The notes under the pieces are model-generated. The model had not been told where the DNA came from and made no database searches. It worked only from the letters and a program-made list of their open reading frames with translations. The position numbers and the translations under genes are program-made. Positions 1,660-63,563 of a stretch of DNA of 64,000 nt are shown here, piece after piece. Origin of the DNA: Candidatus Parcubacteria bacterium (GTDB lineage Bacteria > Patescibacteriota > Minisyncoccia > Phycocordibacterales > JAACPR01); contig JAACPR010000003.1 of NCBI GenBank assembly GCA_009995365.1, forward strand, positions 405-64,404, written 5' to 3'. The stretch's first letter is position 1, and each line of letters starts with the position of its first letter.

Positions 1660-1854
1660 AATTTTGTTGTTCGACTATCATAGCAGAACATTTTTGTTTG
1701 TCAAAGCACCTAACAAATTTGGCAAAGCCCTCTCTCAAATTGGTTTCGGACTCTGTTTTATTTTTAAAGGAAGTCCTGCAAAGATTTTCGATAGGACTTT
1801 GCCAAATTTGTTAACTTGTTAATAAACAGAGAAAAGTTTAGAATAGACTAACTT

Positions 1855-3524: not shown

Positions 3525-4052
3525 ATGCGCAATAAAGCCTTCACTTTAATAGAATTACTCGTTGTAATTTCAATAGTTAGCCTTCTTTCTAGTGTGGTTA
3601 TTTCTGAATTAAATAAGAGTAGAAATGAAGCTAAGATGAAAGTTTCTTTGGAGAAAGTCAGAATTTTAAGAGATAACATAATAATTGCTCAAGGTAATAC
3701 AGGAAATACTCTTAGGCAGATTACTGGTTCAGGATGTAGTAGGTGTCACAGTAGTTGTAGTAATACTGATTTAAAAAATGTTTCAACAGAATGTTATTCT
3801 AGATGGGTTAATGCTGTGGATGATATTTTTAATGTTTCTGGGGAGATTTATAGGAGTAGCAAAGAATCTCTGTATAGAGATGCTTGGGGTAGTCCTTTTA
3901 TATTAGATGAAAATGAAGGAGAAGTATCAACTGCCTACTGTAGAAGGGATACTTTAAATATTGTAGGACCTGATGGAGTTTACAACACATCTGATGATAT
4001 TAGAATAAATTTACCATACACAGGATATGGTCAAAAAATTTGTGATAATTAA
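3525..4052 (+). CDS. Type IV pilin-like protein with an N-terminal prepilin cleavage/methylation domain and a Cys-rich C-terminal part
   Basis: MRNKAFTLIELLVVISIVSLL is a class III signal with F+1 and E+5. The gene is inserted between rpsG and fusA, with a TATAAT -10 element at 3506-3511. Confidence 0.6.
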   Translation: MRNKAFTLIELLVVISIVSLLSSVVISELNKSRNEAKMKVSLEKVRILRDNIIIAQGNTGNTLRQITGSGCSRCHSSCSNTDLKNVSTECYSRWVNAVDDIFNVSGEIYRSSKESLYRDAWGSPFILDENEGEVSTAYCRRDTLNIVGPDGVYNTSDDIRINLPYTGYGQKICDN

Positions 4053-6354: not shown

Positions 6355-6490
6355 CCAACATTAACTTATAGAAAACACGAATCAGCGACCTACTCGGGTC
6401 GCTGTTCTCGTCTCGGACGAACTCTTAATTTTATCGACATAGTAGTTCGACCCGTTCGTCCTGTGACGGGTTTTCTATAAGTTAATGTTT
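6355..6490. repeat. About 135-nt palindromic structured element immediately downstream of fusA. A roughly 20-bp outer stem encloses nested hairpins.
   Basis: The outer arms are aacattaacttatagaaaac and gttttctataagttaatgtt. Inner hairpins are cagcgacc...ggtcgctg and cggacgaac...gttcgtcc. Confidence 0.5.
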
Positions 6491-6564: not shown

Positions 6565-6755
6565 ATAAATATAAGTTCATTAAGAAACAAATACTTGCGA
6601 AATTGTATTTATTCAATTAGTCACAGTTTCAGGTAGCTATATTTAATTATTAACAAACAACTAGCTATCTAAAACTGTGACTAATAAAGTCCAGTATTCT
6701 AATTTAATAGATTAGAATCCACACTAAACTAATAGTTATAGAAAAGGACAATAAA

Positions 6756-7349
6756 ATGCAAAATAAATACAAAGACATCTCGTTCGGCACAGCTGAAGCA
6801 GTTTTCAACAAGTTGGGCGGTAAAGAAGGGATTGAAAAATTCCTTCGTGACGAAACCAAGGTTGTTGAGGTTGAAGTTACTGAATTCCCAGAATTCATGA
6901 CAATCAAGATCGGCACCCACGATTCGGTCGACGAACTCCGCCAGTCCCTCAAAGACAAAGGAAATCGTATCTCCAGTTACGGAAACGATATCCTTGGTAA
7001 GATCGCCCTCGCCGAAACCGAGACGGAAGTTACGCTGCACTCTGCGACGGTCAAGGAATTGACCGGCAAAGATGTTGCCAGCAATCGCGAAATCAACGAA
7101 GCAATCCGCTCGAAGGGTTACGATCTCTGCCCCGCAGAGGTGGGACCGCAACTTCGGTTGCAGTACTCTGACCAACCTTCTGGCGAATACCTACGTGTTG
7201 CGATGGAGCCAATCGCCGATTCCGACGGCGACCTCTTCATCTTCGACGTCAATCACGCCTACGATGATCGTTGGCTCGATAGCGACGGCGGGCACCCTGA
7301 CGATCGGTGGAACGGTGGCTATCGTTTCGTCTTCGTTTCTCGCAAGTAG
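6756..7349 (+). CDS. DGR target protein (variable protein) with the variable repeat at its C-terminus
   Basis: The C-terminal 133 nt are homologous to a downstream template repeat, and all mismatches sit at template-repeat adenines. The ending ...GGYRFVFVSRK is weakly reminiscent of a C-type-lectin-fold terminus. Local GC content is elevated. Confidence 0.8.
   Translation: MQNKYKDISFGTAEAVFNKLGGKEGIEKFLRDETKVVEVEVTEFPEFMTIKIGTHDSVDELRQSLKDKGNRISSYGNDILGKIALAETETEVTLHSATVKELTGKDVASNREINEAIRSKGYDLCPAEVGPQLRLQYSDQPSGEYLRVAMEPIADSDGDLFIFDVNHAYDDRWLDSDGGHPDDRWNGGYRFVFVSRK
7215..7347 (+). repeat. DGR variable repeat (VR)
   Basis: Aligns over about 133 nt with 7712-7844. About 15 differences all correspond to A in the template repeat (A to G/T/C). 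The identical GC-rich 3' end gtttcgtcttcgtttctcgcaa is an IMH-like segment. Confidence 0.85.
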
Positions 7350-7404
7350 CTTAGTGCTTTGGACTTGGTCACTCTGACCTAGTCCTTAGATACTTAGACC
7401 TTAG

Positions 7405-7443
7405 TCCCGCCCAATCGTTAGATTGGTGCGGGGCTTTTTTTAT
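7405..7443 (+). terminator. GC-rich hairpin plus T-run downstream of the variable repeat. It is a terminator and possibly the DGR homing-enhancing hairpin.
   Basis: cccgcccaatcgttagattggtgcgggg followed by cttttttt. Confidence 0.5.
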
Positions 7444-7711
7444 TGTATAAAAATTTGTTAAAATATTTTTTGGTATTAGGTGAATATCAGTATATGATCA
7501 TGGTTGTATACCACTGAATCCAGCAATATGATAAATCGAGAATGTTTGCGACTACGGTTTCAAACAGAGTGGTTTATTTGAGCTTTTAAAAAAATAAAAA
7601 TACTTGGTGTGAGGTGTTATTGTATTTAAGATACAGAATTCGATACAACTTGTAGATAATAAATTTGATTATCGATAGGTAGTGGTATGGACGACGCTTC
7701 ATACAGAACGA

Positions 7712-7844
7712 ACCGATTCCGACGGCAACCTCAACATCTTCAACGTCAATCACGACAACGATGATCGTTGGCTCAATAGCAACAACGGGCACCCTGACAA
7801 TCAGTGGAACGGTGACAATCGTTTCGTCTTCGTTTCTCGCAAAT
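7712..7844 (+). repeat. DGR template repeat (TR)
   Basis: Near-identical to the variable repeat, with adenines at every variable position. It lies between the target gene and the reverse transcriptase. Confidence 0.85.
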
Positions 7845-7848
7845 CTTT

Positions 7849-8208
7849 TTATTTCTCTCCCGATTTATTGTTGGGAGAGTTTTGTTTTGTCAGTTGTCCA
7901 TTCCAGCCACCTAACATTTTTCCAATCTCTTCGATTTTTAGAGACAAAGCAATATACTTTTTATGATTTAAACTTTTGCTCTCCCATAAAATCATTAAAA
8001 GTATTTTGAGAGTGTCTATTTTTCTAATTCCAACACGAACATAAGGTTGTTTTTCTTTGGGACTTAAAAAACATGCTTGAGCAATCATTTCAATGCTTTC
8101 AATAAATAGTTTATCGATTTTTATACCTAGAGAATGACGATGTAGTTTTGGAATAGCTTGATAATAACTAAACCAGAGTAAATATAATTCTTTTAGTTTT
8201 TGAAGCAC
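7849..8208 (-). CDS. avd: Avd-like accessory variability determinant (four-helix-bundle, 23S rRNA intervening-sequence protein family) with a GTG start, encoded antisense to the TR-RT spacer
   Basis: 119 aa and basic. ...IPKLHRHSLG... and the C-terminal IEEIGKMLGGWNGQLTKQ resemble the bAvd/PF05635 C-terminus (…eeigkmL..). It sits between the template repeat and the reverse transcriptase. Confidence 0.65.
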   Translation of the reverse strand: MLQKLKELYLLWFSYYQAIPKLHRHSLGIKIDKLFIESIEMIAQACFLSPKEKQPYVRVGIRKIDTLKILLMILWESKSLNHKKYIALSLKIEEIGKMLGGWNGQLTKQNSPNNKSGEK

Positions 8209-8219
8209 TGGTAAAAGCT

Positions 8220-9269
8220 TTGCGGGGGGGGGGTAGACTGTTTATAGTGAGAAAAATTTTTAGACATGAATACAATGATATCATTTCTGTTGAGAATTTG
8301 TTATTAGCTTGGCAAGAATTTATTAGAGGGAAGAAAAATAGGAAAGATGTTCAAGAATTTCAATTATATCTGATGAAAAATATTTTTGAATTACATTTTG
8401 ATTTAAAAAATAAAACTTACCAACATTCGAAATATCAAAAATTCAATATTAGTGATCCAAAGCCAAGAGAAATTAATAAAGCATCTGTTAGAGATAGATT
8501 ACTTCATCATGCTATTTATCAAAAACTTTATCCATTTTTTGATAAGAAGTTTATTGGTGATTCTTATTCTTGTAGGAATGGAAAAGGAACGCATAAAGCC
8601 ATTAATCAATTTGAGAAATTTTATAGAAAAGTTTCTAAAAATCACACTAAAACTTGTTGGGTTTTAAAATGTGATATTAAAAAATTCTTTGCCAGTATTA
8701 ACCATCAGATTTTAAAGGATGTTTTAATTAAATATATTTCTGATAAAGATATTTTAAATTTATTGTCAGTGATAATTGATAGTTTTGAAACTAATAAACA
8801 TTTAATAGTTGGCAAAAATTCAAAAACTGGTCTTCCACTCGGAAATTTAACCTCTCAATTATTGGTTAATATTTACATGAATGAATTTGATCATTTTGTT
8901 AAAGGAAATTTGAAAATAAAATATTATGTTCGTTATGCTGATGATTTTGTTTTTCTATCTACAGACAAAAAATTTTTAGAAAAACTTATTCCTAAAATTG
9001 GATATTTTTTAGAAACTAATTTAAAATTAACTCTACACCCTAACAAAGTTTCAATCAAAAATTATTCATCAGGTGTCGATTTTCTTGGCTGGGTTCATTT
9101 TGATGATCATAAAATACTAAGAACTAATACTAAAAATCGGATGTTTAAGAAATTACAATTTCAGTTAGAAAAATTTGGAGAAATTAACGAAGATTCGAGA
9201 CAGTCTTATTTGGGATTATTGTCGCATGGTAATACTTATAAAATTCAACAAGAAATAAGAGGAAAATAA
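8220..9269 (+). CDS. DGR reverse transcriptase. The start is uncertain: TTG at 8220 or GTG at 8247.
   Basis: RT motifs are DIKKFFASINHQIL, the YVRYADDFVF (YADD) motif and the LGNLTSQ motif (the DGR-specific I/LGxxxSQ that replaces QGxxxSP of group II RTs). About 349 aa with no maturase or endonuclease domains. Confidence 0.85.
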   Translation: MRGGGRLFIVRKIFRHEYNDIISVENLLLAWQEFIRGKKNRKDVQEFQLYLMKNIFELHFDLKNKTYQHSKYQKFNISDPKPREINKASVRDRLLHHAIYQKLYPFFDKKFIGDSYSCRNGKGTHKAINQFEKFYRKVSKNHTKTCWVLKCDIKKFFASINHQILKDVLIKYISDKDILNLLSVIIDSFETNKHLIVGKNSKTGLPLGNLTSQLLVNIYMNEFDHFVKGNLKIKYYVRYADDFVFLSTDKKFLEKLIPKIGYFLETNLKLTLHPNKVSIKNYSSGVDFLGWVHFDDHKILRTNTKNRMFKKLQFQLEKFGEINEDSRQSYLGLLSHGNTYKIQQEIRGK

Positions 9270-9327
9270 AATCTTTCTAAAATAATAGTTTGACTAAAGT
9301 AATACAATGTATATACTTTGTATTATG

Positions 9328-9597
9328 AAAACAACAACCAGTATAAAACTAGATAAAGAGGTCAAAGAACAGGCTTCTGATTTAGCCAAGGAACTTGGAC
9401 TTTCTCTGAGTGGTGTTATTAATGCTACTCTAAAACAGTTTGTTAATGACAGGAGTGTTTTTCTGACTACTACCCCTCAATTCAATGAAAAAGCCGCCAA
9501 ACGAATGCTAAAATTAATGGATGATGCTAAAAAAGGTAAAAATCTATGTGGTCCTTTTAAAACAGATGAAGAATTATTTAAAGCATTAGAAATTTAA
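9328..9597 (+). CDS. dinJ: DinJ/RelB-family antitoxin. The ORF track starts at 9307.
   Basis: SIKLDKEVKEQASDLAKELGLSLSGVINATLKQF matches the DinJ RHH N-terminus. Confidence 0.7.
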   Translation, partial: KTTTSIKLDKEVKEQASDLAKELGLSLSGVINATLKQFVNDRSVFLTTTPQFNEKAAKRMLKLMDDAKKGKNLCGPFKTDEELFKALEI

Positions 9598-9604
9598 TTT
9601 TATT

Positions 9605-9859
9605 ATGCGGATAACTTTTCATAGGAAATTTAAGAAAAATATTAAAAAACAACCTAGAAAAGTTCAAATTAAATTTAAAAAAAGATATAAATTATTTAAA
9701 AAAGATCAATTTCATCATTCACTCAACAATCACGCTCTAAAAGGAAAATATTATGGAATTAGAAGTATTAATATAACTGGTGATATTAGGGCTCATTACC
9801 TAGAGGATGATGGAGGTGTTATTTTTCTGGATATCGGTGATCATTCTGACCTATATTAG
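9605..9859 (+). CDS. yafQ: YafQ/RelE-family toxin (mRNA interferase)
   Basis: HHSLNNHALKGKYYGIRSINITGDIRAHYL...DIGDHSDLY matches the YafQ C-terminal signature. It is adjacent to and just downstream of the antitoxin gene. Confidence 0.7.
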   Translation: MRITFHRKFKKNIKKQPRKVQIKFKKRYKLFKKDQFHHSLNNHALKGKYYGIRSINITGDIRAHYLEDDGGVIFLDIGDHSDLY

Positions 9860-9872: not shown

Positions 9873-9992
9873 AAAACCCTAACCCAAATACTATCGAGTT
9901 CCTCCGCAGACCTTCGTTGTCAATGACTTTATGTCTTGACATAAGAAGTGTCGAGGACGGGAACGAGAGAGTATTTGGGTTAGGGTTTTTTT
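9873..9992 (+). ncRNA. Terminator-embedded structured RNA element, copy 1. A conserved roughly 80-nt core sits inside a long outer stem followed by a T-run.
   Basis: The outer stem is aaaaccctaacccaaatac / gtatttgggttagggttttttt. The core ctatcgagttcctccgcagacc...gtcaatg.ctttA..cttgac.aag.agtgtcgaggacgggaacgagagag is shared with the copy at 23059-23175. Confidence 0.5.
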
Positions 9993-14626: not shown

Positions 14627-15274
14627 ATGAATACTTTAATTATTTTATTATCAAACGGGTTATTTGGTTATTATGCAATAATCAATGAGGTAGGAATTGG
14701 CTATGTATTGTTAACCTTTTTAATTGAAGGATTATTTTTTGCTTTTTTTAGTCATCGCAGAATTAAGAAAATTAAGAATTTTTCAGTTAAAGATATGAAA
14801 GTTAATGGCCAAAATCTTGAGAAAGAAGATACATCCCCTGAAAATCAGGCCCATTTTTTCTTGTTTTTGTCGGTTTTTTCATTCGGTATTGTTTCTATGT
14901 TTTTGTTCGTAGCTCTATTTACGGAGCAAGGTTCAGAATTGGGCCTAGTATATAAACATGATAATTATATTTACCTATTTATTTTAATGTTCTTTTTATC
15001 TTCATATTTCAAATATAAACAAGATATAGAAAAAGATAAAAAAAGAGAAATTTTACTTTCCACTATGTTTTCTCTAGGAATAATTAGAGCTTTCGTTTTT
15101 GTCCCAATTATAATTTTTGGTCCTATGATATTTCAATCTCAAGGAGGTGAAATGAATACAGATAGTGTTTTGATTATTTTCTTCATTTTTATAAAGGTTT
15201 TTCTAGTAGATTTCCCATCTCAAGGCATGAATGTTTATACTGAAAACGAAATAAAAACTGATAATAATATATAA
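14627..15274 (+). CDS. Hypothetical polytopic membrane protein inserted between rplB and rpsS
   Basis: Five or six hydrophobic helices. It is flanked upstream by a terminator and downstream by a consensus promoter. Confidence 0.45.
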   Translation: MNTLIILLSNGLFGYYAIINEVGIGYVLLTFLIEGLFFAFFSHRRIKKIKNFSVKDMKVNGQNLEKEDTSPENQAHFFLFLSVFSFGIVSMFLFVALFTEQGSELGLVYKHDNYIYLFILMFFLSSYFKYKQDIEKDKKREILLSTMFSLGIIRAFVFVPIIIFGPMIFQSQGGEMNTDSVLIIFFIFIKVFLVDFPSQGMNVYTENEIKTDNNI

Positions 15275-23052: not shown

Positions 23053-23058
23053 GGTCAT

Positions 23059-23175
23059 AAAAACCACACAACCACTATCGAGTTCCTCCGCAGACCTGCG
23101 GTGTCAATGGCTTTACGCCTTGACGCAAGCAGTGTCGAGGACGGGAACGAGAGAGAGGTTGTGTGGTTTTTGTGT
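23059..23175 (+). ncRNA. Terminator-embedded structured RNA element, copy 2
   Basis: Same conserved core as 9873-9992. It has a different but self-complementary outer stem (aaaaaccacacaaccact / gaggttgtgtggtttttg) followed by a T-run. Confidence 0.5.
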
Positions 23176-23223: not shown

Positions 23224-23499
23224 ATGGTAAAATTAGAACTTAAAAAAGTCGTACCTTTCATTGTAGTAATTCTGGTTATTATAATACTCACTTTCTATTT
23301 TTTAAATACAAAACAACAAGAACAGCAAAAAAATATTGATTTAATTGTACCAAACGGTGTTATTCCAGATTATATAAATGTTTTTTATACTAATGGTGGT
23401 TTCCACACATCAAATTTAAAGATTAATAAACAAAAGATTGTCTTTAGAAATATGTCTGATTATGCGATTATTCTAAAAGAAGTTTCAGATAATTTTTGA
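23224..23499 (+). CDS. Small membrane-anchored hypothetical protein. An in-frame TGA at 23497 is followed by 42 more sense codons to 23628.
   Basis: N-terminal transmembrane helix. The downstream in-frame continuation EGTRVESGSHFLYEFEGEGSYIIEEQKSGLKLDVSINNIDYE looks coding. Confidence 0.4.
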   Translation: MVKLELKKVVPFIVVILVIIILTFYFLNTKQQEQQKNIDLIVPNGVIPDYINVFYTNGGFHTSNLKINKQKIVFRNMSDYAIILKEVSDNF

Positions 23500-23620
23500 G
23501 AGGGAACTAGAGTAGAATCTGGGAGTCATTTTCTGTATGAATTCGAAGGTGAAGGTAGCTATATCATCGAAGAACAAAAGTCTGGGCTTAAGTTAGATGT
23601 TTCTATAAATAACATAGATT

Positions 23621-26600
23621 ATGAATAAGATTAAAAATAATAGAAAAATAGTTGGTCCGCTGCTACTATTGTTTTTTTTAGTCGGCTCAGTTTTTGGGTA
23701 TCGGGTTGTGTTAGCGGCTATTGATATTGTAGATGAATGGGGAGAAACAATTGTTCGTGATCCAAGATATGTTGGTAGTGACACTGTATATAGTGAAAGT
23801 GCTAGTGCTAATAAAATAAGTGGAGGAGCTTGTAAAATTGATTATAATAGTAGTAGTTCTTGGAGAGATAATCGTGATTTGTCTGGTCGGGCTGAAATTT
23901 TGTCAAGGGAAATTTCTAATAGTGGTTGGGGTTTAGTTTGTGATTCTTCTGGTAGTGATAATGTTTGGGCCGATATACTTGCTTGTGGCAGTTACACGAA
24001 ATCAGGATTTTATTACCAACTTAGTCAAAGACTTCACGTTGACTTAGGTGCAGGATATACAGGTGATGAGGGTATGAGTTTAAGAATTAACCAAAATCAT
24101 GATAGCACTAATAGTGGTAGAGATGTTTTAATCAAATCTGATGAAGATGCTTTTGTTTTTGAACTTGAAAATTACCATTCTAATCCTGATGAAATAAAAA
24201 GAGTAGAGATATATGTTAATGATGTATATTTAAAAACTTTATTTCCTGATCCTGCGACGTCTGTTGGTTTAAAATTGAGTAAAATTGAATTATTAAATAT
24301 AGAGTTATATGATAGTTATAGTGGTTTCGATAGATTGGATGTTAGAATCAATGCTTATGGAGAAAATTCATCTTATTCTATAGCTGAACAAGTGGTAATT
24401 GAACCAAATATTAATTATATACCAGAAGGGATAGATATAACTGTTTATGGTAATTCTTATAAAAAGCAACCATATTCTTTTATTGTAAATTCAATAAATC
24501 AACCTATATATATAAATGATAAGTACATTGATCCAGCAAAAACTCCTATAGAAATTAAGGCATCAGGGGATATCTTGAGAGGAAATGGTTGGTTTGTTAA
24601 ATTTGATGAAAATACAATTTTTGATGATTTTATAGCTGTTGATGGAACTGGAGCTGATTATGATGTTTGGAAGAGTGATGTTTTTTATGATGAAGAAGAA
24701 GATATAAATGGCGGTATATTAAGGGCTCCAAGCGGTGTCACACTTAGTTTAGAATCGGTCAGATTAGATGGTGTCGAAATTGATAGTAGTCGTTATTATT
24801 TAGGTGGTACATATAGTAATAATCTCATGTTAATAAATCAAGATCTAGAATCTGGACCCAGAAGGTTAGAATATGATTACAGCTATGTTTATAACGGGTA
24901 TACATATGAAAGAAATAATACTACGGATTTTCTTATTGTTAAAAATGATTTAAATAAAATTCGTAGTAGTTTTTGGAATGATAATAAATTTTATTTAGAA
25001 ATAGATTTTAAAAACTTTTCAGAAGAAGATGCACCCCTTATTGAGTATGAAACTTCATGGGGTGAATCAGGTTCTTATTTTTGGGGAAAGGAATCTTATA
25101 CTAACGGTGAATATAATCAGGGTATGAGATTTAATGAATTGTTAGATAATTTATTAAATGATTCAACAACAAGGTGGGAGCTTGTTCGTGACGGTGTAGT
25201 CGAAGATCCTAATAAACCATATTATTCCTCTGGGTGGGTTCCTAAATGGGCACCTTCTGATGAAGGAGGGTACGCCATACCGTATGATGGTGATATTGAT
25301 ATAAGAGTAACTTTTTTTGATGGTCAAGTTCTTAACAAAAATGTAAAAATCAGTGATATTGTTAGTGTTTCAAAGATTCAAGATATAGAAGGTGTTGGTA
25401 CTTATTTCAAGATAAAAAATTCAGAAGAATATAGTTTCGTTAATAAATGGAGAGCTTCTCAAGACTCTTCTGATAGTTATTTTAATGTTTCTTCTAGACA
25501 AATTATTAGTAGTACAGATGAAGGTGGTGACTATCATTGGAGTATTGAAAATTCAGTTGGTAATTATAAACTACTTGGTAATAATCAGTATGGAATATTA
25601 GAGCAACCGGATTATCAATTTGATTATTATTCTGATGCCGGAGGTTATGATTCTCTAGGTAGAGACCAATATAAAGTCAATAGAACTAGATTTGATAACC
25701 CAATAGGAAGCTTAAATAGAAGTTATGGTTATAATATTGTAAATATACCTTTTAATGTCCCTTACTATTATTTGCATGATCCATACTCTGATGAGATAAG
25801 AGGTATAAATCCTTCTTGTGTTGATTATACAGATCCAGAACCAATACCACCAGATGATCCACTGGAACCTCCAGTTTATCCACCAACAGAACCACCACCA
25901 CCAAAACCAGAAAATTTTGTTCTAGACGCAGCAGCGATGTCCAATGATGGTTGTTATTACCAAGAAGAACCATATAATGTTGAATTAGTCTGGGGTAATG
26001 TTGATACTGCGTCAGGTTATTCGGTATACATTGATTACGATAACAATGGTTTATTTGAAGATTCAGAAAAAATAGCTGATCCTGCACAAAATTCAACTAC
26101 AACAAATCCTCATAATCTAAAAGAAGCACCCAATTTTGCAGAAGGTAATACTTATACTTATCAAGTAAAAGCTTGGTATGAATTTGACGGTCAGCTCAGA
26201 AGTTATACAGCAGAAGATTCTGTAACAGTTCCTGCTGAATGTGTGGTCTTGGAACCTTTATCATGTGGGACATTAACCGAAACATCAAATAGGCCATCAG
26301 AATCTAATACAAATCTATGTTCTGTCGATGCTAATGTTGTATCTTCAAGTATAGTTGAGACCTATGATAATCTTGGGTGGTCATGGCAGTGTTCACAAGA
26401 TTCTAATACTGTCCCTTGTACTGCCTATTGTCCTTATGAAAAACGCGTATGTGGTGATGTTTGTATATCTGATGATCAACCCTGTGGTAACGAATGTCCA
26501 GATGATAGATGGTTATGTGGTTCCGAGTGTATTCCGTTAAATCAACCTTGTGGTCTTAGCTGTGAAGAACCATATGTGTTAAGTCCGGATGAGACTGAAT

Positions 26601-26944
26601 GTATTATTAGTGACAATAGCGATGTTACCATAAGTGTTTTTAATTCAAACCCAAGACTGATTAATGAAGGTGAAAATTGTAAATTAGATTGGCTTATTAC
26701 AACAGAGAATACTAATTTAATAGATTGTGAAATTACTTCTGATAATAATCAATCTCAATCTTTAGGTCTTACACCAAACACTAGTGGTACTATAGCGAGC
26801 TACAATATTTTTGAAAATGTTAACTCTCAAACAAATTACACTTTGACTTGTAGGGCTTATAATCCAGATACTGGTGCTATGGGTTCTATTATAGACTCAA
26901 AACAAACAAGATGTATGATAAATCCTTATTACATTGAATTTTAA
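23621..26944 (+). CDS. Large (1107 aa) secreted/surface protein with an N-terminal signal anchor, a Pro-rich linker and a C-terminal Cys-rich repeat region
   Basis: MNKIKNNRKIVGPLLLLFFLVGSVFG, DPEPIPPDDPLEPPVYPPTEPPPPKPE, and repeated C..CG..CI..QPCG modules. It is inserted between secY and adk. Confidence 0.5.
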   Translation: MNKIKNNRKIVGPLLLLFFLVGSVFGYRVVLAAIDIVDEWGETIVRDPRYVGSDTVYSESASANKISGGACKIDYNSSSSWRDNRDLSGRAEILSREISNSGWGLVCDSSGSDNVWADILACGSYTKSGFYYQLSQRLHVDLGAGYTGDEGMSLRINQNHDSTNSGRDVLIKSDEDAFVFELENYHSNPDEIKRVEIYVNDVYLKTLFPDPATSVGLKLSKIELLNIELYDSYSGFDRLDVRINAYGENSSYSIAEQVVIEPNINYIPEGIDITVYGNSYKKQPYSFIVNSINQPIYINDKYIDPAKTPIEIKASGDILRGNGWFVKFDENTIFDDFIAVDGTGADYDVWKSDVFYDEEEDINGGILRAPSGVTLSLESVRLDGVEIDSSRYYLGGTYSNNLMLINQDLESGPRRLEYDYSYVYNGYTYERNNTTDFLIVKNDLNKIRSSFWNDNKFYLEIDFKNFSEEDAPLIEYETSWGESGSYFWGKESYTNGEYNQGMRFNELLDNLLNDSTTRWELVRDGVVEDPNKPYYSSGWVPKWAPSDEGGYAIPYDGDIDIRVTFFDGQVLNKNVKISDIVSVSKIQDIEGVGTYFKIKNSEEYSFVNKWRASQDSSDSYFNVSSRQIISSTDEGGDYHWSIENSVGNYKLLGNNQYGILEQPDYQFDYYSDAGGYDSLGRDQYKVNRTRFDNPIGSLNRSYGYNIVNIPFNVPYYYLHDPYSDEIRGINPSCVDYTDPEPIPPDDPLEPPVYPPTEPPPPKPENFVLDAAAMSNDGCYYQEEPYNVELVWGNVDTASGYSVYIDYDNNGLFEDSEKIADPAQNSTTTNPHNLKEAPNFAEGNTYTYQVKAWYEFDGQLRSYTAEDSVTVPAECVVLEPLSCGTLTETSNRPSESNTNLCSVDANVVSSSIVETYDNLGWSWQCSQDSNTVPCTAYCPYEKRVCGDVCISDDQPCGNECPDDRWLCGSECIPLNQPCGLSCEEPYVLSPDETECIISDNSDVTISVFNSNPRLINEGENCKLDWLITTENTNLIDCEITSDNNQSQSLGLTPNTSGTIASYNIFENVNSQTNYTLTCRAYNPDTGAMGSIIDSKQTRCMINPYYIEF

Positions 26945-27110
26945 AAAAATATTTTTCCACAGTATAAAAGCTTATTATAAATTTAAACTGTTATAATAAA
27001 GGACATAAAAGGACATGTTTAAATTTATTAAAACAATTTTATTATTTTCATTTTTAATATTTGTCCTTTTCTCTATCTCTGTTGTTTCAGCTAGTGGCTC
27101 GTTTTAAATT

Positions 27111-38516: not shown

Positions 38517-38680
38517 GTGGACATCGTGCTTAATTATTGGAACCACCTAGAATGCTGGGTGTATGAGAGTTATGACAAAGTAATTGAGTTAGAGGAGGGG
38601 AATTGAGCCTTGCAAATAAAGAATAGGTTACGGTGATAAGTATCACATATAGGTAATTAAATAATATAAAAGAAAACACC
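38517..38680 (+). repeat. Island repeat family, copy 2
   Basis: gtggacatcgtgcttaattattggaaccacctagaatgctgggtgtatgagagttatgacaaag...ggtgataagtatcacatataggtaattaaataat. Confidence 0.7.
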
Positions 38681-39132: not shown

Positions 39133-39231
39133 AGTAAACCTCTTTCTAAGAATTTTAATTGAATGTGCTCAACGTCAGAATTGACGAAGTAATTGAATAA
39201 TAACACTAAAACACTAAAAGTCAAGCGATGT

Positions 39232-40286
39232 GACTTTGTAAATTGTCTATCGAAATGCAATCGCTTTTGATAATGATTGCTTCGGAACTCTCTTTATAAT
39301 ACCACGCTCACAAGCCACCTCATGAGCACTTCTATAACCTAGTGACTTTCTATACTTATGATTAAGCAGGTGTAGCTGTGATTGAAATACATCGTCTGAT
39401 ATTTTCGATAGATTAGTTCCTTTAGGAATAAACCATCTTCTGATTAAACCTATACCACCTTCAACATGTGGTTTTTGCCAAGGAGATCCTAAATCACAAA
39501 AATAACTAGGTATGGGTAGTTTATTATGATGAACATTTTCAATTCCATTGTCTGCTAAAAATGTATCTATATTCAAATAGTTTAATTTAGTGTTTATAGA
39601 ATCATCAACAACTCTAGCTTGTCTATTTGGGATTATAGAACCTGAAAATAATTTTGCTTCGGGAACAACGATTAATAACCCACTTGCCTTAGAGTGACAA
39701 TTTTTAGGTGATACAAATAAATCACGTTCTGCATGGATACCTATATTAGGTCTATCCTTAAAGGATATTCTGTTTGGTATTAAAACCTTTTTCCCTAGTT
39801 TAGATTGTTTCTTGCTTCTTGTTCTCTTTGTACATAAATACTGACAATATTGTTGACCATATGAAGAATATAACCATTTATAAATAGCATTAGTGCCAAC
39901 CCTTGATTCTATATTCATTCTCTTCAATCTTCCTGCAATTTCATCAGGAGAACGCAATTTCTTTAATTGTTTTATAATGTATTGTTTTAATTCAGGATAT
40001 GATTCAATTTTGATACCAATTCTTTTTGAATTAAGTCTTTTAACATCAGCATCCTTTTGAGCTGTGGTTGCAGAATATTTATATGTTTTCCTGGGGTATC
40101 TATTGATTTCTCTGGAAACAGTACTTGGGTGTATTCCAAGTATTAGAGCCATATCTTTCTGACTATGTCCGTTCATAAATAAAGCATGAATTCTATCTCT
40201 ATCCCTTTGTTTTAAATGTCTAAAATTTCTTATTTTCTTCATACAATTTAATATTACATAAATTGCATTTCAAAAGAGAATTTTCA
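39232..40286 (-). mobile_element. IS30-family insertion sequence (about 1.05 kb) with 25-bp imperfect terminal inverted repeats
   Basis: Right inverted repeat TGTAAATTGTCTATCGAAATGCAAT and left inverted repeat (reverse complement) TGAAAATTCTCTTTTGAAATGCAAT, matching 20 of 25. They enclose a single transposase gene. Confidence 0.7.
39247..40242 (-). CDS. IS30-family DDE transposase
   Basis: N-terminal HTH (GHSQKDMALILGIHPSTVSREINRY). C-terminal DLGSPWQKPHVEGGIGLIRRWFPKGTNLSKIS...LNHKYRKSLGYRSAHEV is typical of IS30. Confidence 0.85.
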   Translation of the reverse strand: MKKIRNFRHLKQRDRDRIHALFMNGHSQKDMALILGIHPSTVSREINRYPRKTYKYSATTAQKDADVKRLNSKRIGIKIESYPELKQYIIKQLKKLRSPDEIAGRLKRMNIESRVGTNAIYKWLYSSYGQQYCQYLCTKRTRSKKQSKLGKKVLIPNRISFKDRPNIGIHAERDLFVSPKNCHSKASGLLIVVPEAKLFSGSIIPNRQARVVDDSINTKLNYLNIDTFLADNGIENVHHNKLPIPSYFCDLGSPWQKPHVEGGIGLIRRWFIPKGTNLSKISDDVFQSQLHLLNHKYRKSLGYRSAHEVACERGIIKRVPKQSLSKAIAFR

Positions 40287-40332
40287 GACATCGTGTAAAT
40301 ACTTACCATATATAGTTAATTAAATAATATAA
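40287..40332 (+). repeat. Truncated island repeat (5' gacatcgtg joined directly to the 3' box ...atatagttaattaaataat) abutting the IS30 left end
   Basis: Shares the first 9 nt and the last roughly 25 nt of the repeat consensus. Confidence 0.45.
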
Positions 40333-40378
40333 AGAAAAAAGCACCTTTGATATTATCTCCGGTGCCTCGTTGGTTATT

Positions 40379-43792: not shown

Positions 43793-43941
43793 TAGAAAGA
43801 AACGACAGAGTCGCACCCTTGTAGGGAAACAGTTATGACAGGGAAACAGACAAAAACATTTTTTATGGAATCTTTGCAGGCTTCATTTTGATATAACAGA
43901 AGCCGAAACCAATTCCATAAAAATTGTTTTTGGGAGTTTCC

Positions 43942-44391
43942 TTATCGTAATTTTTTCAAAGTTCTATGAATCTCACGGTCAGATTCGCGGCGTTTGATTG
44001 TCTCTCGTTTATCTCGAGTCTTTTTCCCGCGCCCGACAGCGAACTTAACCTTTACCTTATTTCCTTTATTATACAACGACATAGGTATCAATGTCAAACC
44101 CTTCTGATTCTCGATTTCAGCCAACTCCCTCAACTCCTTTTTAGTCAAAAGTAGGCGACGAGGACGCATTTGATCATAGTTATCAGGGGTATTATTTGCT
44201 TGGTAAGGAGGAATATCCAGCCCAATCAGAAAAGCTTCGTTCCCACGGATAACAACATAAGAACCAGAAAGATTCCCTCTGTTATTTTTAAGGGATTTCA
44301 CTTCAAAACCGAATAATTCAATACCGGCTTCGTATTTATCTTGCACCTCATAACTGAAGGTTGCTTTCTTGTTGTTGACTAAAGTTGCCAT
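43942..44391 (-). CDS. smpB: SsrA-binding protein SmpB
   Basis: KATFSYEV...FGFEVKSLK...GNLSGSYVVIRGNEAFL... Confidence 0.9.
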   Translation of the reverse strand: MATLVNNKKATFSYEVQDKYEAGIELFGFEVKSLKNNRGNLSGSYVVIRGNEAFLIGLDIPPYQANNTPDNYDQMRPRRLLLTKKELRELAEIENQKGLTLIPMSLYNKGNKVKVKFAVGRGKKTRDKRETIKRRESDREIHRTLKKLR

Positions 44392-53275: not shown

Positions 53276-54025
53276 CTAAAGAGGCTTCCCAGACACTGTC
53301 TCATTTACATCAAATTTCATTACAGTCATACGCTCAAGCTTTGTGCCTGCTTCTGGCAAGGCTTCTCTACGCTCCATATCAAAGATGAATCGTACGAACA
53401 GGTATACAAAGTCGAATGCCATAAACTCTCTCCCTTGCTCGTCCTTGAGCGGATAATAGCTGACTCGTGGGTTTTCTGATTTTTCGTTACTGCCCATGAG
53501 TATATAACCACTGAAATCTTTTTTACCGAGGATAATATCTCGCACCTCATCAAACCGTGGCGACAGGACAAAATCTCGTCCGTGATCAAGACACACTAAT
53601 TCATACCCAATTTTATACAAAGACCTCGCAAGAAGTTTTAATCGTTTCGCATCCATTTTTCTTGTACCACGAAAATCTAGTTTGAAACCTGTATCACTTT
53701 GATCTCGTACATGCTTCATAGTTTGAAGATGTATTTGGACGTGATCCTTGTCAGGGTTTTCTATTTTTAGATTTGGGAAATTGGCGACAGGAACTTTCCC
53801 TGATTTGCTTTCAATGCCATTCATGGTTCTCATGAATTTAATTCCCTCAAAATCAAGAAGTTCTGCATCAAGTTTTGATAATGTCTCGTTATTACAAGTA
53901 TCACAAACAAATCCTTTATCTAAAATCTTCTCTTTGTTACCGAGTGATTCAGGAAAAATATGCTCAACACTATTGAATGAGTTGGTTGTGCTTTTACAAA
54001 AGATACATTCTTGAATCGTTCCCAT
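53276..54025 (-). CDS. HNH endonuclease family protein
   Basis: CIFCKS...VEHIFPESLGN...CDTCNN (His-Me finger with zinc ligands). Confidence 0.7.
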   Translation of the reverse strand: MGTIQECIFCKSTTNSFNSVEHIFPESLGNKEKILDKGFVCDTCNNETLSKLDAELLDFEGIKFMRTMNGIESKSGKVPVANFPNLKIENPDKDHVQIHLQTMKHVRDQSDTGFKLDFRGTRKMDAKRLKLLARSLYKIGYELVCLDHGRDFVLSPRFDEVRDIILGKKDFSGYILMGSNEKSENPRVSYYPLKDEQGREFMAFDFVYLFVRFIFDMERREALPEAGTKLERMTVMKFDVNETVSGKPL

Positions 54026-54057
54026 ACGTACATTATATCTCGTATTTAAGGTAAAAT

Positions 54058-54669
54058 ATGCATATGAAGCGTAAGAAGCCAGAATTCATATATCCATTTA
54101 AAGACAAGGAACATGAGGAGTCATGTAAATTTATTGATATACGAAGAATGAATATGGTTTCTGACCGTAACTCAAAAGTTGAGCTTACCGAAACGGTATA
54201 CACTGGCGGATATCGAAAGGTTGAGTTGAAAGAAACAATCTACATCAAAAAAGGTAACGGTCAAAAACTTGGAGAATTACTTTACCTGCGACCCTACGAC
54301 CAGATGCGTATAAAAAAGTTAATTGATTTTGTGGTGTACATAAACAAGGATGGTGAAATGTTCCTAACGAGAAAAGATTACGCAAAAGAACCTCTCGATT
54401 TCACACCTGACCAACGAGCAATCATTAGATTATTTTACGAAAGAAAAAATGTAACTCTTGAAGATGCAGTATCTATTTTAGGGACTTACAAAAATACAGA
54501 GTCGCTAAGAGTAACCATACGAAAAATAAATCGTCGTGTTGTTGGACATTTTAAACTTACCGAACGAGATGAATTTATTAAAGGAGATTTTGATAGAAAA
54601 AGAAAAGGATACGCTTTCAACCCAGACATTAGACTTGAATTCATAGACGACAGAGTGCTCGGCGAATAA
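54058..54669 (+). CDS. Hypothetical protein, divergent from the HNH gene
   Basis: ORF of 203 aa with a downstream terminator. Confidence 0.4.
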   Translation: MHMKRKKPEFIYPFKDKEHEESCKFIDIRRMNMVSDRNSKVELTETVYTGGYRKVELKETIYIKKGNGQKLGELLYLRPYDQMRIKKLIDFVVYINKDGEMFLTRKDYAKEPLDFTPDQRAIIRLFYERKNVTLEDAVSILGTYKNTESLRVTIRKINRRVVGHFKLTERDEFIKGDFDRKRKGYAFNPDIRLEFIDDRVLGE

Positions 54670-54693
54670 GTGGAGTGGAAAAGTTTATAAAAA

Positions 54694-54716
54694 AGCCCGC
54701 AAATACGGGCTTTTTT
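54694..54716 (+). terminator. Rho-independent terminator (AGCCCGcaaataCGGGCT followed by T6)
   Basis: Canonical hairpin plus U-tract. Confidence 0.6.
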
Positions 54717-54773
54717 AGTATTTATATCCCTCAAAGTTACAGATTACAGCTTCTTTTTTAAGATCTATGCTCA

Positions 54774-56096
54774 ATGCAGATATACACATATCTACATTAT
54801 CAACTAACCAATATAACTATGAGTAAAAAATTAGTTTGGCATACGGAGAAACGTAAAGTGAAGGATTTGATTCGATACGAAAAGAATCCTCGAATACTAT
54901 CCCCGACACAACTTGAAGGACTCAAGCGGAGTCTTAAAAAGTTTGATCTGGCAGAATTGCCCTGCATCAACACAGATGGCACTTTAGTCGCTGGTAACCA
55001 GCGAGTGATGGTTCTGTCTCTTCTTGGTCGAGAGGATGAGGAGATTGAAGTGAGAGTCCCAAATAGACCACTTTCGGAAAAGGAATTTAAAGACTACCTA
55101 CTTACCTCAAATCGAAGTGGTGCATCTTGGGATTTTGAAAAACTTGCAAGAGATTTTGATCTCGATGAACTCCTTACTGCGGGTTTTGATTCATTTGATC
55201 TTTCAAATATTTTTGATGACAACCTCGAAGTAGATGACGATGATATTGATCTTGAAAAAGAACTCAAAGAAGCTCAAAAAACAGACATAAAATTGGGTGA
55301 CAAATTTTCACTCGGCAATCACGTTTTAATCTGTGGAGATAGTACTAAAAAAGAAACGGTTACTGAGCTAGTAGGTTCTGAGCGGATAGATCTAATCAAT
55401 ATAGATTTTCCATACAACATAGGCGTAGATTACTCGGCAGGATTAGGGGGTAAGCAAAATTACGGAGGAACTATTAATGATAAAAAATCAGATGCTGAAT
55501 ATAAGGAGTTTCTTGCAAGCATCTTAAAAAATGCACTAGAGATATCGAAGAACGACTGCCACGCTTTTGCATGGCTTGATGAAAAATATCTTGGAACGAT
55601 GCAAGATGTTTTCAAGACGGTCGGTATTGATTTCAAACGACTTTGCCTATGGGCAAAATCACAGCATAACCCAACTCCAAAAATTGCCTTTAATCGTGCT
55701 GTGGAACTATGTATGTATGGCGTGCGAGGAAAGCCTTATCTTTCCGACAAGATAAAGAATCTCACTGAGTTTCAAAACAAAGAGATATCTTCAGGAAATA
55801 GACTGATTGAAGATGTGTTGGACATGTTCCAGATATGGCTTGTGAAAAGATTACCGAGTTCCCAATACCTTCACCCTACTATGAAGCCTCCGACCCTATA
55901 CGAAAAAAGTATCAGGCGATGCAGTAAGCCCGGCGATGCAATTCTTGACCTGACAGCAGGGTCAGGGAGTCTTCTCGTGGCTTGTGAATCCCTCAAACGT
56001 CGAGCATTCCTTGCAGAGATCGAGCCAGTTTTTTGTCAGGTAATTATTAATAGATTTAAGAATATATCCGATGAAAAAGTCACCAAACTCAATTAA
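54774..56096 (+). CDS. ParB-like nuclease domain fused to a beta-class N6-adenine/N4-cytosine DNA methyltransferase
   Basis: N-terminal ParB/Srx-like (YEKNPRILSP...LVAGNQRV). Motif IV-like DFPY and motif I ILDLTAGSGSLLVACESLKR in beta-class order. Confidence 0.65.
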   Translation: MQIYTYLHYQLTNITMSKKLVWHTEKRKVKDLIRYEKNPRILSPTQLEGLKRSLKKFDLAELPCINTDGTLVAGNQRVMVLSLLGREDEEIEVRVPNRPLSEKEFKDYLLTSNRSGASWDFEKLARDFDLDELLTAGFDSFDLSNIFDDNLEVDDDDIDLEKELKEAQKTDIKLGDKFSLGNHVLICGDSTKKETVTELVGSERIDLINIDFPYNIGVDYSAGLGGKQNYGGTINDKKSDAEYKEFLASILKNALEISKNDCHAFAWLDEKYLGTMQDVFKTVGIDFKRLCLWAKSQHNPTPKIAFNRAVELCMYGVRGKPYLSDKIKNLTEFQNKEISSGNRLIEDVLDMFQIWLVKRLPSSQYLHPTMKPPTLYEKSIRRCSKPGDAILDLTAGSGSLLVACESLKRRAFLAEIEPVFCQVIINRFKNISDEKVTKLN

Positions 56097-56829
56097 ATAC
56101 GGGGATACATTTCAATTAGGATCGCACCTCTTGTTATGTGCAGACTCTCGCAACAAAGACATGGTCGCAAAGCTTGTTGGCAAGCATAAGATAAAGGCAG
56201 TGATATCAGACCCTCCCTACGGAGTGGCAGTAACTGAAAGCAAAGAAGGATTCAAAACACTCGCCAAGAATAAGCCAATCTTAAATGACCACCTACAAAG
56301 TGATCAGGAGTATAAAACTTTTTCTCGTGACTGGGTTGAAGCAATTCGACCACATCTTGATCGTAAGAATAGTTTTTATATCTTCAATTCAGACAAGATG
56401 ATATTTGCTCTTCGTGACGGAATGCACGATGCAGGATTAAAATTTGCACAACTACTTATCTGGGTAAAAACACATGCTGTTATTGGTCGAATGGATTACG
56501 CACCACAACACGAACTTATTGCTTATGGGTGGCATGGGACACATGAGTTCTTGAAATCAAAAGACAAGAGTGTTTTAGTCTGCCCAAGACCAAACAAAAG
56601 CAAGATGCACCCTTCGACAAAGCCGATTGAGCTTATTCGTAGACTCGTACTAAACAGCACCCGAATCGGAGATGTGGTGTTTGATGGATTTCTTGGATCA
56701 GGCACGACACTACTAGCATGTGAGCAAACAAAGCGTATGTGCATCGGAGTCGAGATGGATACTGAGTACTGTCAAACAATCATTGATCGTTTTGAAAAAC
56801 TCACCAACATCAAAGCGAAAAAACTATGA
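56071..56829 (+). CDS. DNA methyltransferase (beta-class N6A/N4C), paralog of the C-terminal half of the preceding gene
   Basis: DPPYG (motif IV) then FDGFLGSGTTLLACEQTKR (motif I). Its N-terminus IKYGDTFQLGSHLLLCADS parallels IKLGDKFSLGNHVLICGDS of the ParB-MTase. Confidence 0.75.
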   Translation: MKKSPNSIKYGDTFQLGSHLLLCADSRNKDMVAKLVGKHKIKAVISDPPYGVAVTESKEGFKTLAKNKPILNDHLQSDQEYKTFSRDWVEAIRPHLDRKNSFYIFNSDKMIFALRDGMHDAGLKFAQLLIWVKTHAVIGRMDYAPQHELIAYGWHGTHEFLKSKDKSVLVCPRPNKSKMHPSTKPIELIRRLVLNSTRIGDVVFDGFLGSGTTLLACEQTKRMCIGVEMDTEYCQTIIDRFEKLTNIKAKKL

Positions 56830-57257
56830 GTAGAAAAGATTCAATCAATGAGCGTCAAAGCAAAATCAGGGATGCACTTCTTGATCAGTTAAGGCGTACG
56901 CCAACGCTTGAAACCTCTTGTCAGAAGGTTGGTATTTCTCGTGCGAGCGTGTATAGGTGGATTGCAGGCAGTAAGAAGTTTGAGCGACAAGTTGATGAAG
57001 CATTAAATGACGGACGGAAATTCATGTCTGATATCGCTGAAAACCAACTCTTCTCTCTCATTGGTGACAAAAAAATAGAAGCTATCCGTTTGTATCTCTC
57101 AACTCATAATCCTCGATACAGCAACAAGCTTGAACTATCAGGAAGTGTTGAGACAAAAGAGAAACCACTTACGAAAGAAGAGAAAAAGCACATCCGTGCC
57201 GCCCTCAAACTTTCATCACTACGCAAACATGCCAAGTTTAAAGATACAAAGGAATAG
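56826..57257 (+). CDS. Terminase small subunit-like HTH protein
   Basis: HTH (TSCQKVGISRASVYRWIAGSKKF) immediately upstream of and overlapping the large terminase. Confidence 0.5.
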   Translation: MSRKDSINERQSKIRDALLDQLRRTPTLETSCQKVGISRASVYRWIAGSKKFERQVDEALNDGRKFMSDIAENQLFSLIGDKKIEAIRLYLSTHNPRYSNKLELSGSVETKEKPLTKEEKKHIRAALKLSSLRKHAKFKDTKE

Positions 57258-58689
57258 TGATGAGGATATCTTTGAGAAAATTCTTACAGATCAGGTCGTA
57301 AGAAAGCATACTGTACAAAATAGTTTTGAATTCTTCTTCCCGATATATTTTCATCAATACATGGAATATGAGACAGCACCCTTTCATGAGGAGATGTTTC
57401 GTATTCTTGAAGACGAGCAAATCAAGCTTGCGGTTTTTGTTGCATTCCGTGGATCAGCAAAATCAACCATCATCTCAACGGCATATGTCCTGTGGTCTAT
57501 TCTCGGAATTCAGCAACGAAAACTTATTGTCATTTGTGGTCAGACTGAACAGAAAGCACGGCAGTATCTTTTGAACATCAAGAGTCAACTTTTAAATAAC
57601 GAACTACTGAGAAAAGACCTCGGACCATTTGAAGAAGAAAAGAATAATCTCGGTAATGCCACTGCTCTTATTATCAAGCGACTCAATGTGAAGATAATGA
57701 TTAGCTCGGTTGAGCAAAGTATCCGTGGTATGCGACACGATCAATACAGACCAGACCTTATTATTCTTGATGACATCGAAGATACTAATTCAGTAAAAAC
57801 ACGAGCTGGGCGTGACAAGACATTTAATTGGCTTGTGAGTGAGGTTATTCCCGCAGGAACAAAGAAAACTCGCATTATTGCTGTGGGTAATCTTCTACAT
57901 GAAGATTCTGTATTGAAACGTCTGCAAAAGCGTATTGAAGGCGATGAAATGAGGCGTATCAAATCAGTCTATCGAGAATACCCAATCGTAGATGGAAAAG
58001 GTAATCCTTTGTGGCCCGGCAAGTATCCGACCATTGAAGACGTTGAGGCTGAAAGAGAAAAGACCATGAATGAGGTCGCATGGTTTCGTGAGTATATGCT
58101 CCAGATTATTACTACAGACGAGCAAATCGTATCTCCTGAATGGATCACATTTTATGACAAGATGCCTGCGGATGGATTCAGAAGTATCTGTATCGGTATT
58201 GATTTGGCGGTAAGTGAAAAAGATTCTGCTGATTGTACTGCTATTGTTGTTGCATATGTATACGGCACAGGAAAAAACATGAAAATCTATATTCAAAAAC
58301 ATCCCTACAACAAGAGAAGTTCATTTCCTGTACATGCAGAATTTATTAAAGCATTAGTAGCAACTGAAAAGTTAAAGCATAACCGAGTAAAGTTGTATGT
58401 TGAAGATGTTGGATATCAAAAGGCATTGATTCAATTCTTTGAAAGCCAAAAATATGACATTGAAGGGGTACCTACTGGTAGAAATGACAAAGGTGCACGA
58501 TTGCGACTTACAACTCCACTATTAAAGGATGGGAGGATTCTATTCCCTGAAAGTGGGTGTGAGGAATTAATTGATCAACTCCTTGGATTTGGAAAGGAAA
58601 AACACGATGATCTAGCTGACGCTTTTTCTATCGTGGTTCTTAAAATCATTGAGAACAATCCAGTTGCGGGTGGAATATTATTTGGTTAG
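57229..58689 (+). CDS. Phage terminase large subunit. The track ORF starts at 57130, but the likely start is MPSLK at 57229.
   Basis: ATPase Walker A VAFRGSAKST, Walker B LIILDD, and a C-terminal RNase-H-like nuclease region (ICIGIDLAVSEKDSADCTA...). Typical TerL. Confidence 0.7.
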   Translation: MPSLKIQRNSDEDIFEKILTDQVVRKHTVQNSFEFFFPIYFHQYMEYETAPFHEEMFRILEDEQIKLAVFVAFRGSAKSTIISTAYVLWSILGIQQRKLIVICGQTEQKARQYLLNIKSQLLNNELLRKDLGPFEEEKNNLGNATALIIKRLNVKIMISSVEQSIRGMRHDQYRPDLIILDDIEDTNSVKTRAGRDKTFNWLVSEVIPAGTKKTRIIAVGNLLHEDSVLKRLQKRIEGDEMRRIKSVYREYPIVDGKGNPLWPGKYPTIEDVEAEREKTMNEVAWFREYMLQIITTDEQIVSPEWITFYDKMPADGFRSICIGIDLAVSEKDSADCTAIVVAYVYGTGKNMKIYIQKHPYNKRSSFPVHAEFIKALVATEKLKHNRVKLYVEDVGYQKALIQFFESQKYDIEGVPTGRNDKGARLRLTTPLLKDGRILFPESGCEELIDQLLGFGKEKHDDLADAFSIVVLKIIENNPVAGGILFG

Positions 58690-58931: not shown

Positions 58932-58932
58932 G

Positions 58933-59502: not shown

Positions 59503-59504
59503 AA

Positions 59505-62417: not shown

Positions 62418-62418
62418 G

Positions 62419-63561: not shown

Positions 63562-63563
63562 AA

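Follow-up and report, generated by a model that had tools for sequence, protein, structure and literature searches.

Does a conserved interior enclosed by stems that differ in sequence, yet are each self-complementary, identify a functional RNA with covarying closing helices, or an element that has come to lie within unrelated hairpins? The question is raised by two hairpins in a 64,000-nucleotide stretch of DNA (the window, to which coordinates without a contig name refer) from an organism that its SecY homologues place in Candidatus Parcubacteria/Paceibacterota. The initial annotation regarded the shared interior as a structured RNA core in the loop of two intrinsic terminators, and suggested a terminator-associated noncoding RNA, a protein-binding 3' UTR element or a small mobile RNA module.

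Two hairpins with a common core

Direct reading locates both hairpins, each approximately 115 nt long, where they had been annotated (9873-9992 and 23059-23175). Copy 1 of what is here called the A type (9873..9992, +) follows yafQ and is upstream of tuf; it consists of terminator arms (9873-9892 and 9970-9989), a T-tract that extends to position 9992 and an 83-nt core (9890-9972), and the -35 box of the tuf promoter starts just past it at position 9994. Copy 2 (23058..23175, +) lies a few bases 3' of the secY stop codon, with arms at 23059-23073 and 23157-23171 around an 83-nt core (23074-23156). The gene order of the region is rpsL-rpsG-(pilin-like gene)-fusA, a DGR, relB-yafQ, copy 1, tuf and the S10 and spc operons to secY, followed by copy 2, two inserted genes (encoding 91 and 1107 amino acids) and adk-map. 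In both copies, the core is in the sense orientation relative to the upstream gene and its read-through transcript.

The str and S10 operons are interrupted by genes encoding a pilin-like protein with an N-terminal methylation motif and a DUF6498 protein (3525-4052 and 14627-15274), as also observed in L066, L070 and L073. The complete DGR between fusA and tuf (6756-9269), a block absent from relatives, comprises a target gene (6756-7349, with VR at 7216-7347), a TR (7713-7844) that has 15 mismatches to the VR, all at adenines of the TR, a bAvd-like gene (7849-8208, -) and a reverse transcriptase gene (8220-9269), and is followed by the relB-yafQ pair (9307-9859). A role of the hairpins as accessory structures of the DGR is excluded because copy 1 lies 600 bp past the reverse transcriptase gene, after relB-yafQ, and the other copies are nowhere near a DGR. 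The two-gene insertion that copy 2 precedes (23224-26944) splits secY from adk, which secY directly abuts in relatives with 88% and 81% SecY identity; a relative with 92% SecY identity has a different insertion of three genes at this location, and the S10-to-L2 part of its operon is not upstream of S19.

The two cores differ at 9 of 83 positions (89% identity), so that the sharing of a core is borne out with a length and identity slightly above the 80 nt and 85% first estimated. A 22-nt block at the 5' side (CTATCGAGTTCCTCCGCAGACC) and a 24-nt block at the 3' side (GTGTCGAGGACGGGAACGAGAGAG) each occur exactly twice in the 64-kb window, with zero occurrences expected from 100 shuffles even if three mismatches are allowed, and the DNA flanking the two hairpins is unrelated. 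The same sequences are found identically in independent ENA and JGI assemblies and in JGI metagenomes, and therefore are not an assembly artefact.

Each copy is predicted to fold into one long imperfect hairpin (minimum free energies of -63.4 and -64.8 kcal/mol for copies 1 and 2, z-scores of -10.1 and -7.9), and the reverse strand is nearly as stable (-58.5 kcal/mol). The core is thus not a terminator loop, as had been proposed, being itself an imperfect palindrome with fixed internal loops, set atop a perfect basal stem that is followed by a T-tract. The outer stems are indeed unrelated in sequence and self-complementary, with 20 perfect pairs and then T7 in copy 1, and 15 perfect pairs plus two more beyond an A.A mismatch and then T5GTGTTT in copy 2. 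Inside the hairpins, the copies differ by two fully compensatory changes (U-A to G-C and A-U to G-C), one change that makes a pair, one that yields a G.U pair and one located in the loop.

Further copies and subtypes

The search for additional copies that the initial annotation recommended was productive. A metagenome scan with a 20-mer from the 5' side of the core recovered both window copies from JGI samples. It also revealed, on a different contig of this species, a third A-type copy (L008:3029-3142, also in L007), which is situated between two minus-strand genes, directly after a gene encoding 227 amino acids, and has a perfect basal stem and a T7 tract; the transcript there would carry the reverse complement of the core. 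The basal stems of copies 1 to 3 are all perfect, with 14-20 bp. The C-terminal region of the 1107-aa protein downstream of copy 2 is paralogous to a 641-aa protein encoded beside copy 3 (L008:1053-2978), so that an A-type element immediately precedes each of the paralogues, in opposite relative orientations.

A covariance model of the three A-type cores identified, at 23 bits, a diverged fourth copy (1711..1813, -; core at 1729-1795), of which the core reads CTATCGAAAATCTTTGCAGGAC...GTCCGAAACCAATTTGAGAGAG. It has arms of 17-20 bp and no T-tract, hence not the form of an intrinsic terminator, and is placed exactly between the -35 boxes of the divergent promoters of rpmB (-) and an M50 protease gene (+), where it is probably not transcribed. 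This copy is a hybrid that bridges two subtypes: its outer layer (CTATCGA...GAGAGAG) resembles the A type, and its middle layer (AATCTTTGCAGG...CCGAAACCAATT) resembles a B type that was recognized, along with a C type, by searching for long perfect inverted repeats. The B-type copy of the window (43826..43957, +) lies between smpB (-) and the tmRNA gene (-), and contains within long imperfect arms a 46-nt module (43869-43914) of the form AATCTTTGCAGGCTTC-N14-GAAGCCGAAACCAATT; a second B module (L008:9203-9248) is enclosed by 25-bp perfect arms. The C-type element (6357..6489, -) follows fusA and has 20-bp perfect arms around a 93-nt core of two hairpins; its nucleus, read on the minus strand, is CACAGGAC...GTCCGAG, and a relative has a homologue of this element after fusA (L077, 14537-14623). 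Another hairpin, between fusA and the DGR target gene (6616-6685), has 14-bp perfect arms (24 nt at 92%) and a palindromic interior of 42 nt with no sequence relationship to the A, B and C cores.

All subtypes have in common the nucleus GCAG(G)NC-loop-GNC(C)GA, from which conservation falls outward and also towards the apical tip. The element consists of two imperfectly inverted halves, a 5' half CTATCGAGTTCCTCCGCAGAC that pairs with a 3' half GTCGAGGACGGGAACGAGAGAG around a variable tip, with fixed asymmetric internal loops (GCA/GA, a CG bulge and GA/GA); the halves are approximately 70% alike when one is reverse-complemented. Elements are about 46-93 nt in size, noncoding and strictly intergenic. 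Seven of them, all subtypes included, are found in approximately 90 kb of the same species (the window and about 25 kb more). Six of the seven are in transcribed 3' or intercistronic regions, with mixed orientation relative to transcription (sense in copies 1 and 2, antisense in others, between divergent promoters in the fourth copy), and the genes that flank them share no common function.

No Rfam family matches the elements: a scan of the whole window against Rfam 15 at the gathering threshold returned the tmRNA and one tRNA only, and permissive scans of the A, B and C elements returned only generic models of long-hairpin miRNAs, 50-180 bits under their thresholds. A scan of species-representative genomes with a 20-mer of the 3' side (GTCGAGGACGGGAACGAGAG) gave four matches, all attributable to chance in high-GC coding DNA of Actinobacteria and Arenimonas; this 20-mer misses copy 3 owing to an A-to-G change. 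Four patterns (both A halves, the B module and a degenerate A nucleus) gave chance matches or none in viral contigs, and distant blastn comparison with a phage collection gave no match.

Outer stems and orthologous sites in relatives

The plain terminators of this lineage are perfect palindromes of 11-23 bp with loops of 1-14 nt, A-rich to the left and T-rich to the right, and frequently conform to the pattern AAAAACCAC...GTGGTTTTT. L087, the nearest relative identified (90% identity in RNase J), reads AAAAAACCACTC-atctct-GAGTGGTTTTTT without a core at the orthologous site of copy 3, where the window species has AAAAAACCAC-ATAAC[83-nt core]GATTAT-GTGGTTTTTTT; the outer ten pairs and the A and T tracts are alike, and the core fills the tip. 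A plain terminator is likewise present at this site in L085 (85%). The orthologous site and the likeness to plain terminators indicate that the outer stems belong to separate terminators of the host and do not covary as helices of one RNA, so that the covarying closing helices of the earlier reading are not supported; the arms of copy 2 resemble those of copy 3 because of the shared terminator archetype. With a stem followed by T7, T5GTGTTT and T7 after yafQ, secY and the 227-aa gene, respectively, copies 1 to 3 are terminator-like hairpins, and termination is predicted at each.

Near-identical plain terminators of the form AAAAAACCAC(T/G)C-atct(c/a)(t/c)-G(A/C)GTGGTTTTTT, with a compensatory change from T-A to G-C, are observed at L087:2690-2720, L087:8560-8590 and L070:18120-18155, which raises the possibility that simple terminators, too, constitute a repeat family in these genomes. 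Other origins of the arms were considered. As guides to other loci, they have no match with up to two or three mismatches in about 300 kb. As inverted duplications of flanking DNA, they have no better candidates than TTTGTCAAAG beside 1711-1813, which matches no better than chance, and an 80%-complementary repeat (I18) around copy 1, at the level of chance in AT-rich, low-complexity DNA.

The core is dispensable and variably present, since relatives have plain terminators or nothing at orthologous sites. No element follows secY in L066, L070 or L072; the B site between genes for an MFS protein and a glutaredoxin is without an element in L084, L085 and L087; and L073 has a plain terminator after fusA. 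The entire hairpin at 1711-1813 is absent from three relatives (L073, L077 and L079, with M50 proteases 85, 77 and 71% identical). As the arms of this copy are perfect and the relatives have no palindrome there, insertion of a core into an existing palindrome does not account for every copy. The pattern of presence and absence could also have come about by loss.

After secY in L072, the palindrome TTCCACATAATT-ta-AATTATGTGGAA is similar to the arms found in copies 2 and 3. It was rejected as an empty site because it corresponds to the promoter region of adk, still present in the window at 26950-26990. Directly 5' of adk, a small open reading frame of about 30 codons (27015-27108) encodes a hydrophobic peptide that starts MFKFIKTILLFSF... 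and is present in all relatives (L066, L070 and L072); it is preceded by a conserved promoter-like region (TTTTCCACA ... TATAAT), which forms a 26-bp perfect palindrome in L072.

A more distant relative (L084, RNase J 87% and SecY 81% identical) has a shortened A-type core (39 bits) at the orthologous site of copy 3, in the same orientation and likewise between minus-strand genes. This core reads UCUAUUGAGUCCCCCCGCAGAC-7 nt-GUCGAGGACUGGGACGAUAGAGA, with the 37-nt inner hairpin missing; the apical 37 nt, variable among copies of the window species, are thus replaced by a 7-nt tip. The conserved halves are identical to those of the window species at 36 of 45 positions (80%), compared with 212 of 454 fourfold degenerate sites (47%, close to saturation for such AT-rich DNA) in five flanking orthologous genes, which suggests a constraint on sequence that is not obviously expected for a purely selfish resident copy. 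Across the five members of a model-guided alignment, 91.9% of cells are paired, and nine pairs have changed on both sides, compared with 2.6 in shuffles and 0-5 in controls with slid partners. Because this alignment is fitted to the model and one sequence supplies most of the double changes, the pairing data indicate that a hairpin has been maintained, not that RNA is the selected molecule. G.U pairs, with few informative cells, exhibit no strand bias and do not separate selection on RNA from selection on DNA.

Origin and possible function of the element

The best reading of these observations is that small palindromic elements nested in terminator hairpins constitute a previously uncatalogued family, which looks most like a small mobile or repetitive DNA element and not a dedicated regulatory RNA. 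More specifically, we estimate a probability of roughly 55% that it is a palindromic insertion family comparable to REPINs and MITEs, lodged at terminator tips in a parcubacterial genome. Among the three suggestions of the initial annotation, the small mobile module is therefore the one that fits best, at the level of DNA instead of RNA. Short imperfectly palindromic elements would occupy the tips of bidirectional intrinsic terminators that were already in place, and now and then other "safe" positions between genes. An insertion at the tip, by sparing the stem base and the U-tract, should leave the terminator functional and carry a low cost, which in a genome with very short intergenic regions would make the terminator tip a natural niche. 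The apical location might come from preferential targeting of hairpin tips, or from the persistence of only those insertions that do no harm; either would give the observed pattern.

We infer that the element is mobile. By analogy with the hairpins of REP/REPIN-RAYT and IS200/IS605 systems, the nucleus with its fixed asymmetric loops would most simply be the recognition hairpin of a trans-acting sequence-specific protein, which may copy or move the element as folded single-stranded DNA or as a cruciform.

REPINs are REP doublets that form hairpins and are mobilised by RAYT Y1 transposases, reaching tens to hundreds of copies. The present elements resemble REP/BIME sequences and REPINs in being short intergenic imperfect palindromes with two inverted imperfect halves around a variable spacer (here CTATCGAGTTCCTCCGCAGAC and GTCGAGGACGGGAACGAGAGAG, which form one long hairpin), in occurring in several copies per genome in either orientation, typically just 3' of genes, and in their compensatory pairing, persistence at orthologous sites between species and lack of terminal duplications. 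They differ in being few as seen here, and in that each is embedded in the tip of a longer terminator palindrome and does not stand by itself. In REPs, the palindrome is reported to be headed by a conserved tetranucleotide, GTAG or CGTC (PMC3733652); the nucleus here is flanked instead by GCAG on one strand and CTCG or TTCG on the other, that is, by GCAG and CGA(G/A). No RAYT gene or linked transposase gene was seen in the approximately 90 kb read, and Y1_Tnp has no match among the scanned proteins or precomputed Pfam labels of the window and the additional 25 kb or so of the same species. A full-text literature search found no REP/REPIN-type element reported for CPR bacteria.

MITEs such as Correia/NEMIS, RUP and ERIC are similarly small, noncoding and hairpin-forming, exhibit insertion polymorphism between relatives, and can sit in or act as terminators, and the element has imperfect inverted ends (CTATCGAG... 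and ...CGAGAGAG) as MITEs do. In contrast to the terminal inverted repeats and direct target-site duplications of MITEs, its ends (CTATC/CTCTC) are weakly inverted, and no target-site duplication occurs at copies 1 to 3, where the flanks are inverted complements (TA..TA, CA..AG and CA..TG), not direct repeats. No parent insertion sequence with matching ends was found in the DNA read. The sole transposon found is an IS30-family element (39223-40297; transposase gene at 39247-40242, -, NCBIfam score of 114.7 bits against a cut-off of 80), of which the inverted repeats of approximately 36 bp contain CTATCGAAATGCAAT. It is probably not the parent, because its overlap with the diverged copy at 1711-1813 is limited to the 9-mer CTATCGAAA; the 9-mer lies towards the inside of the repeat, and CTATCGA is a generally over-represented 7-mer, with 21 occurrences on both strands of the whole window versus 5.5 expected (maximum of 11 in 100 shuffles), often in coding regions and also atop plain terminator stems (38681; L085:13143-13193). 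A direct repeat of approximately 40 nt, CATATATAG(G/T)TAATTAAATAATATAAA(A)GAAAA, occurs at 38636-38675 and, just outside one end of the IS30-family element, at 40305-40345.

IS1397 and ISKpn1 insert into the loops of BIMEs, and group IIC introns target terminator stem-loops. The present elements share with these the targeting of a palindrome or terminator hairpin and the intact host arms on both sides, but those insertion sequences and introns are autonomous, 1-2 kb in length, and encode a transposase or reverse transcriptase, whereas the present elements code for nothing in 46-93 nt; group IIC introns, moreover, insert after the hairpin and not in its loop. The IS110-family elements ISPpu9 and ISPpu10 are reported to target REPs as well (bioRxiv 10.1101/2025.01.17.633520). 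TIGR-Tas stem-loops, which occur in CPR bacteria, have variable palindromic stems and loops with short conserved motifs, and are organized as tandem arrays of units beside a Nop-domain tas gene, with box C/D motifs and two variable spacers of 8-12 nt (PMC12045711). A TIGR array was rejected, the copies being dispersed singly with conserved, paired interiors and no spacer-like variable segments, and no Nop-domain protein is found among the proteins of the window. Integron attC sites, kink-turns and CRISPR repeats are unsuitable in architecture or context.

A more far-reaching proposal, which we put forward tentatively, is that the nucleus is recognized by a CPR protein, making the element either a new class of mobile DNA that targets hairpin apices or an orientation-tolerant RNA- or DNA-binding module kept by the host. 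The former may need neither terminal repeats nor target duplications, and the latter may be under purifying selection at terminators; the contrast between 80% and 47% identity at the orthologous site allows either version.

It is unlikely that the core is instead a structured RNA selected by the host in 3' UTRs or terminators, such as a protein-binding, stabilising or processing element or a terminator-associated small RNA. Conservation of the core between species that approach saturation at fourfold degenerate sites would suit such an RNA, as would the helices kept by compensatory changes, the conserved asymmetric loops and the six of seven copies in transcribed 3' or intercistronic regions. 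On the other hand, the closest relatives do without the core, the flanking genes have no function in common, one copy between divergent -35 boxes is probably untranscribed, Rfam contains no match and the few informative G.U cells have no strand bias. The mixed orientation relative to transcription weakens the RNA reading as well, although the quasi-palindromic halves would make sense and antisense RNAs similar, so that either orientation could work. The dedicated functional RNA that was first proposed is thus disfavoured by the mixed orientation, the location of the fourth copy and the close relatives that lack the core.

A DNA-level element of the host, namely a duplex or cruciform binding site between transcription units for a nucleoid-associated protein, topoisomerase or recombinase, would be indifferent to orientation, and would have a parallel in the binding of gyrase and IHF to BIME/REP clusters. 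The strictly intergenic locations, including a promoter gap that is not transcribed, the conservation above neutral expectation at the orthologous site and the equally good folding of both strands are consistent with it. We consider it improbable because no candidate binding protein was found in the DNA read, the sites seen are too few for a chromosome-wide role, close relatives lack them, and the apex is hypervariable, with a 37-nt inner hairpin in place of the 7-nt tip of L084. That there is no element at all, only duplicated terminators or terminators that converged on similar sequences, can hardly be correct: the archetype AAAAACCAC...GTGGTTTTT would account for the arms of copies 2 and 3, but not for exact 22-nt and 24-nt blocks, unexpected by chance, within unrelated arms and nonhomologous flanks, nor for a core that recurs within different arms at each of three loci, and again in a diverged species, with an 83-nt conserved insert where plain terminators have loops of 1-14 nt. 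In this respect the initial annotation, which held that the pair was not simply a repeated terminator, is upheld, also by the further copies with compensatory changes.

If the palindromic insertion family proposed here is real, it is of interest because interspersed repeat families are hardly documented in CPR bacteria, with their tiny gene-dense genomes; a palindrome at the tip of a terminator shows where such genomes tolerate extra DNA, and can serve as a simple marker in comparisons of strains and lineages. A caution for annotation is that a conserved core with different closing stems can arise by insertion into independent palindromes, not by RNA covariation. Should the core have a specific protein, it would represent, in an uncultured lineage, a new route of DNA into hairpin loops or a new regulatory module linked to terminators.

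The end of the window (53276-64000) and the adjoining contig (L081:1-10000) constitute a region that resembles a prophage or defence island. Its genes within the window encode an HNH endonuclease, two N6/N4 DNA methylases, small and large terminase-like proteins, a YgjP-like peptidase and the R and S subunits of a type I restriction system; just past the window, L081 encodes HsdM, a ThsB-TIR protein and three serine recombinases.
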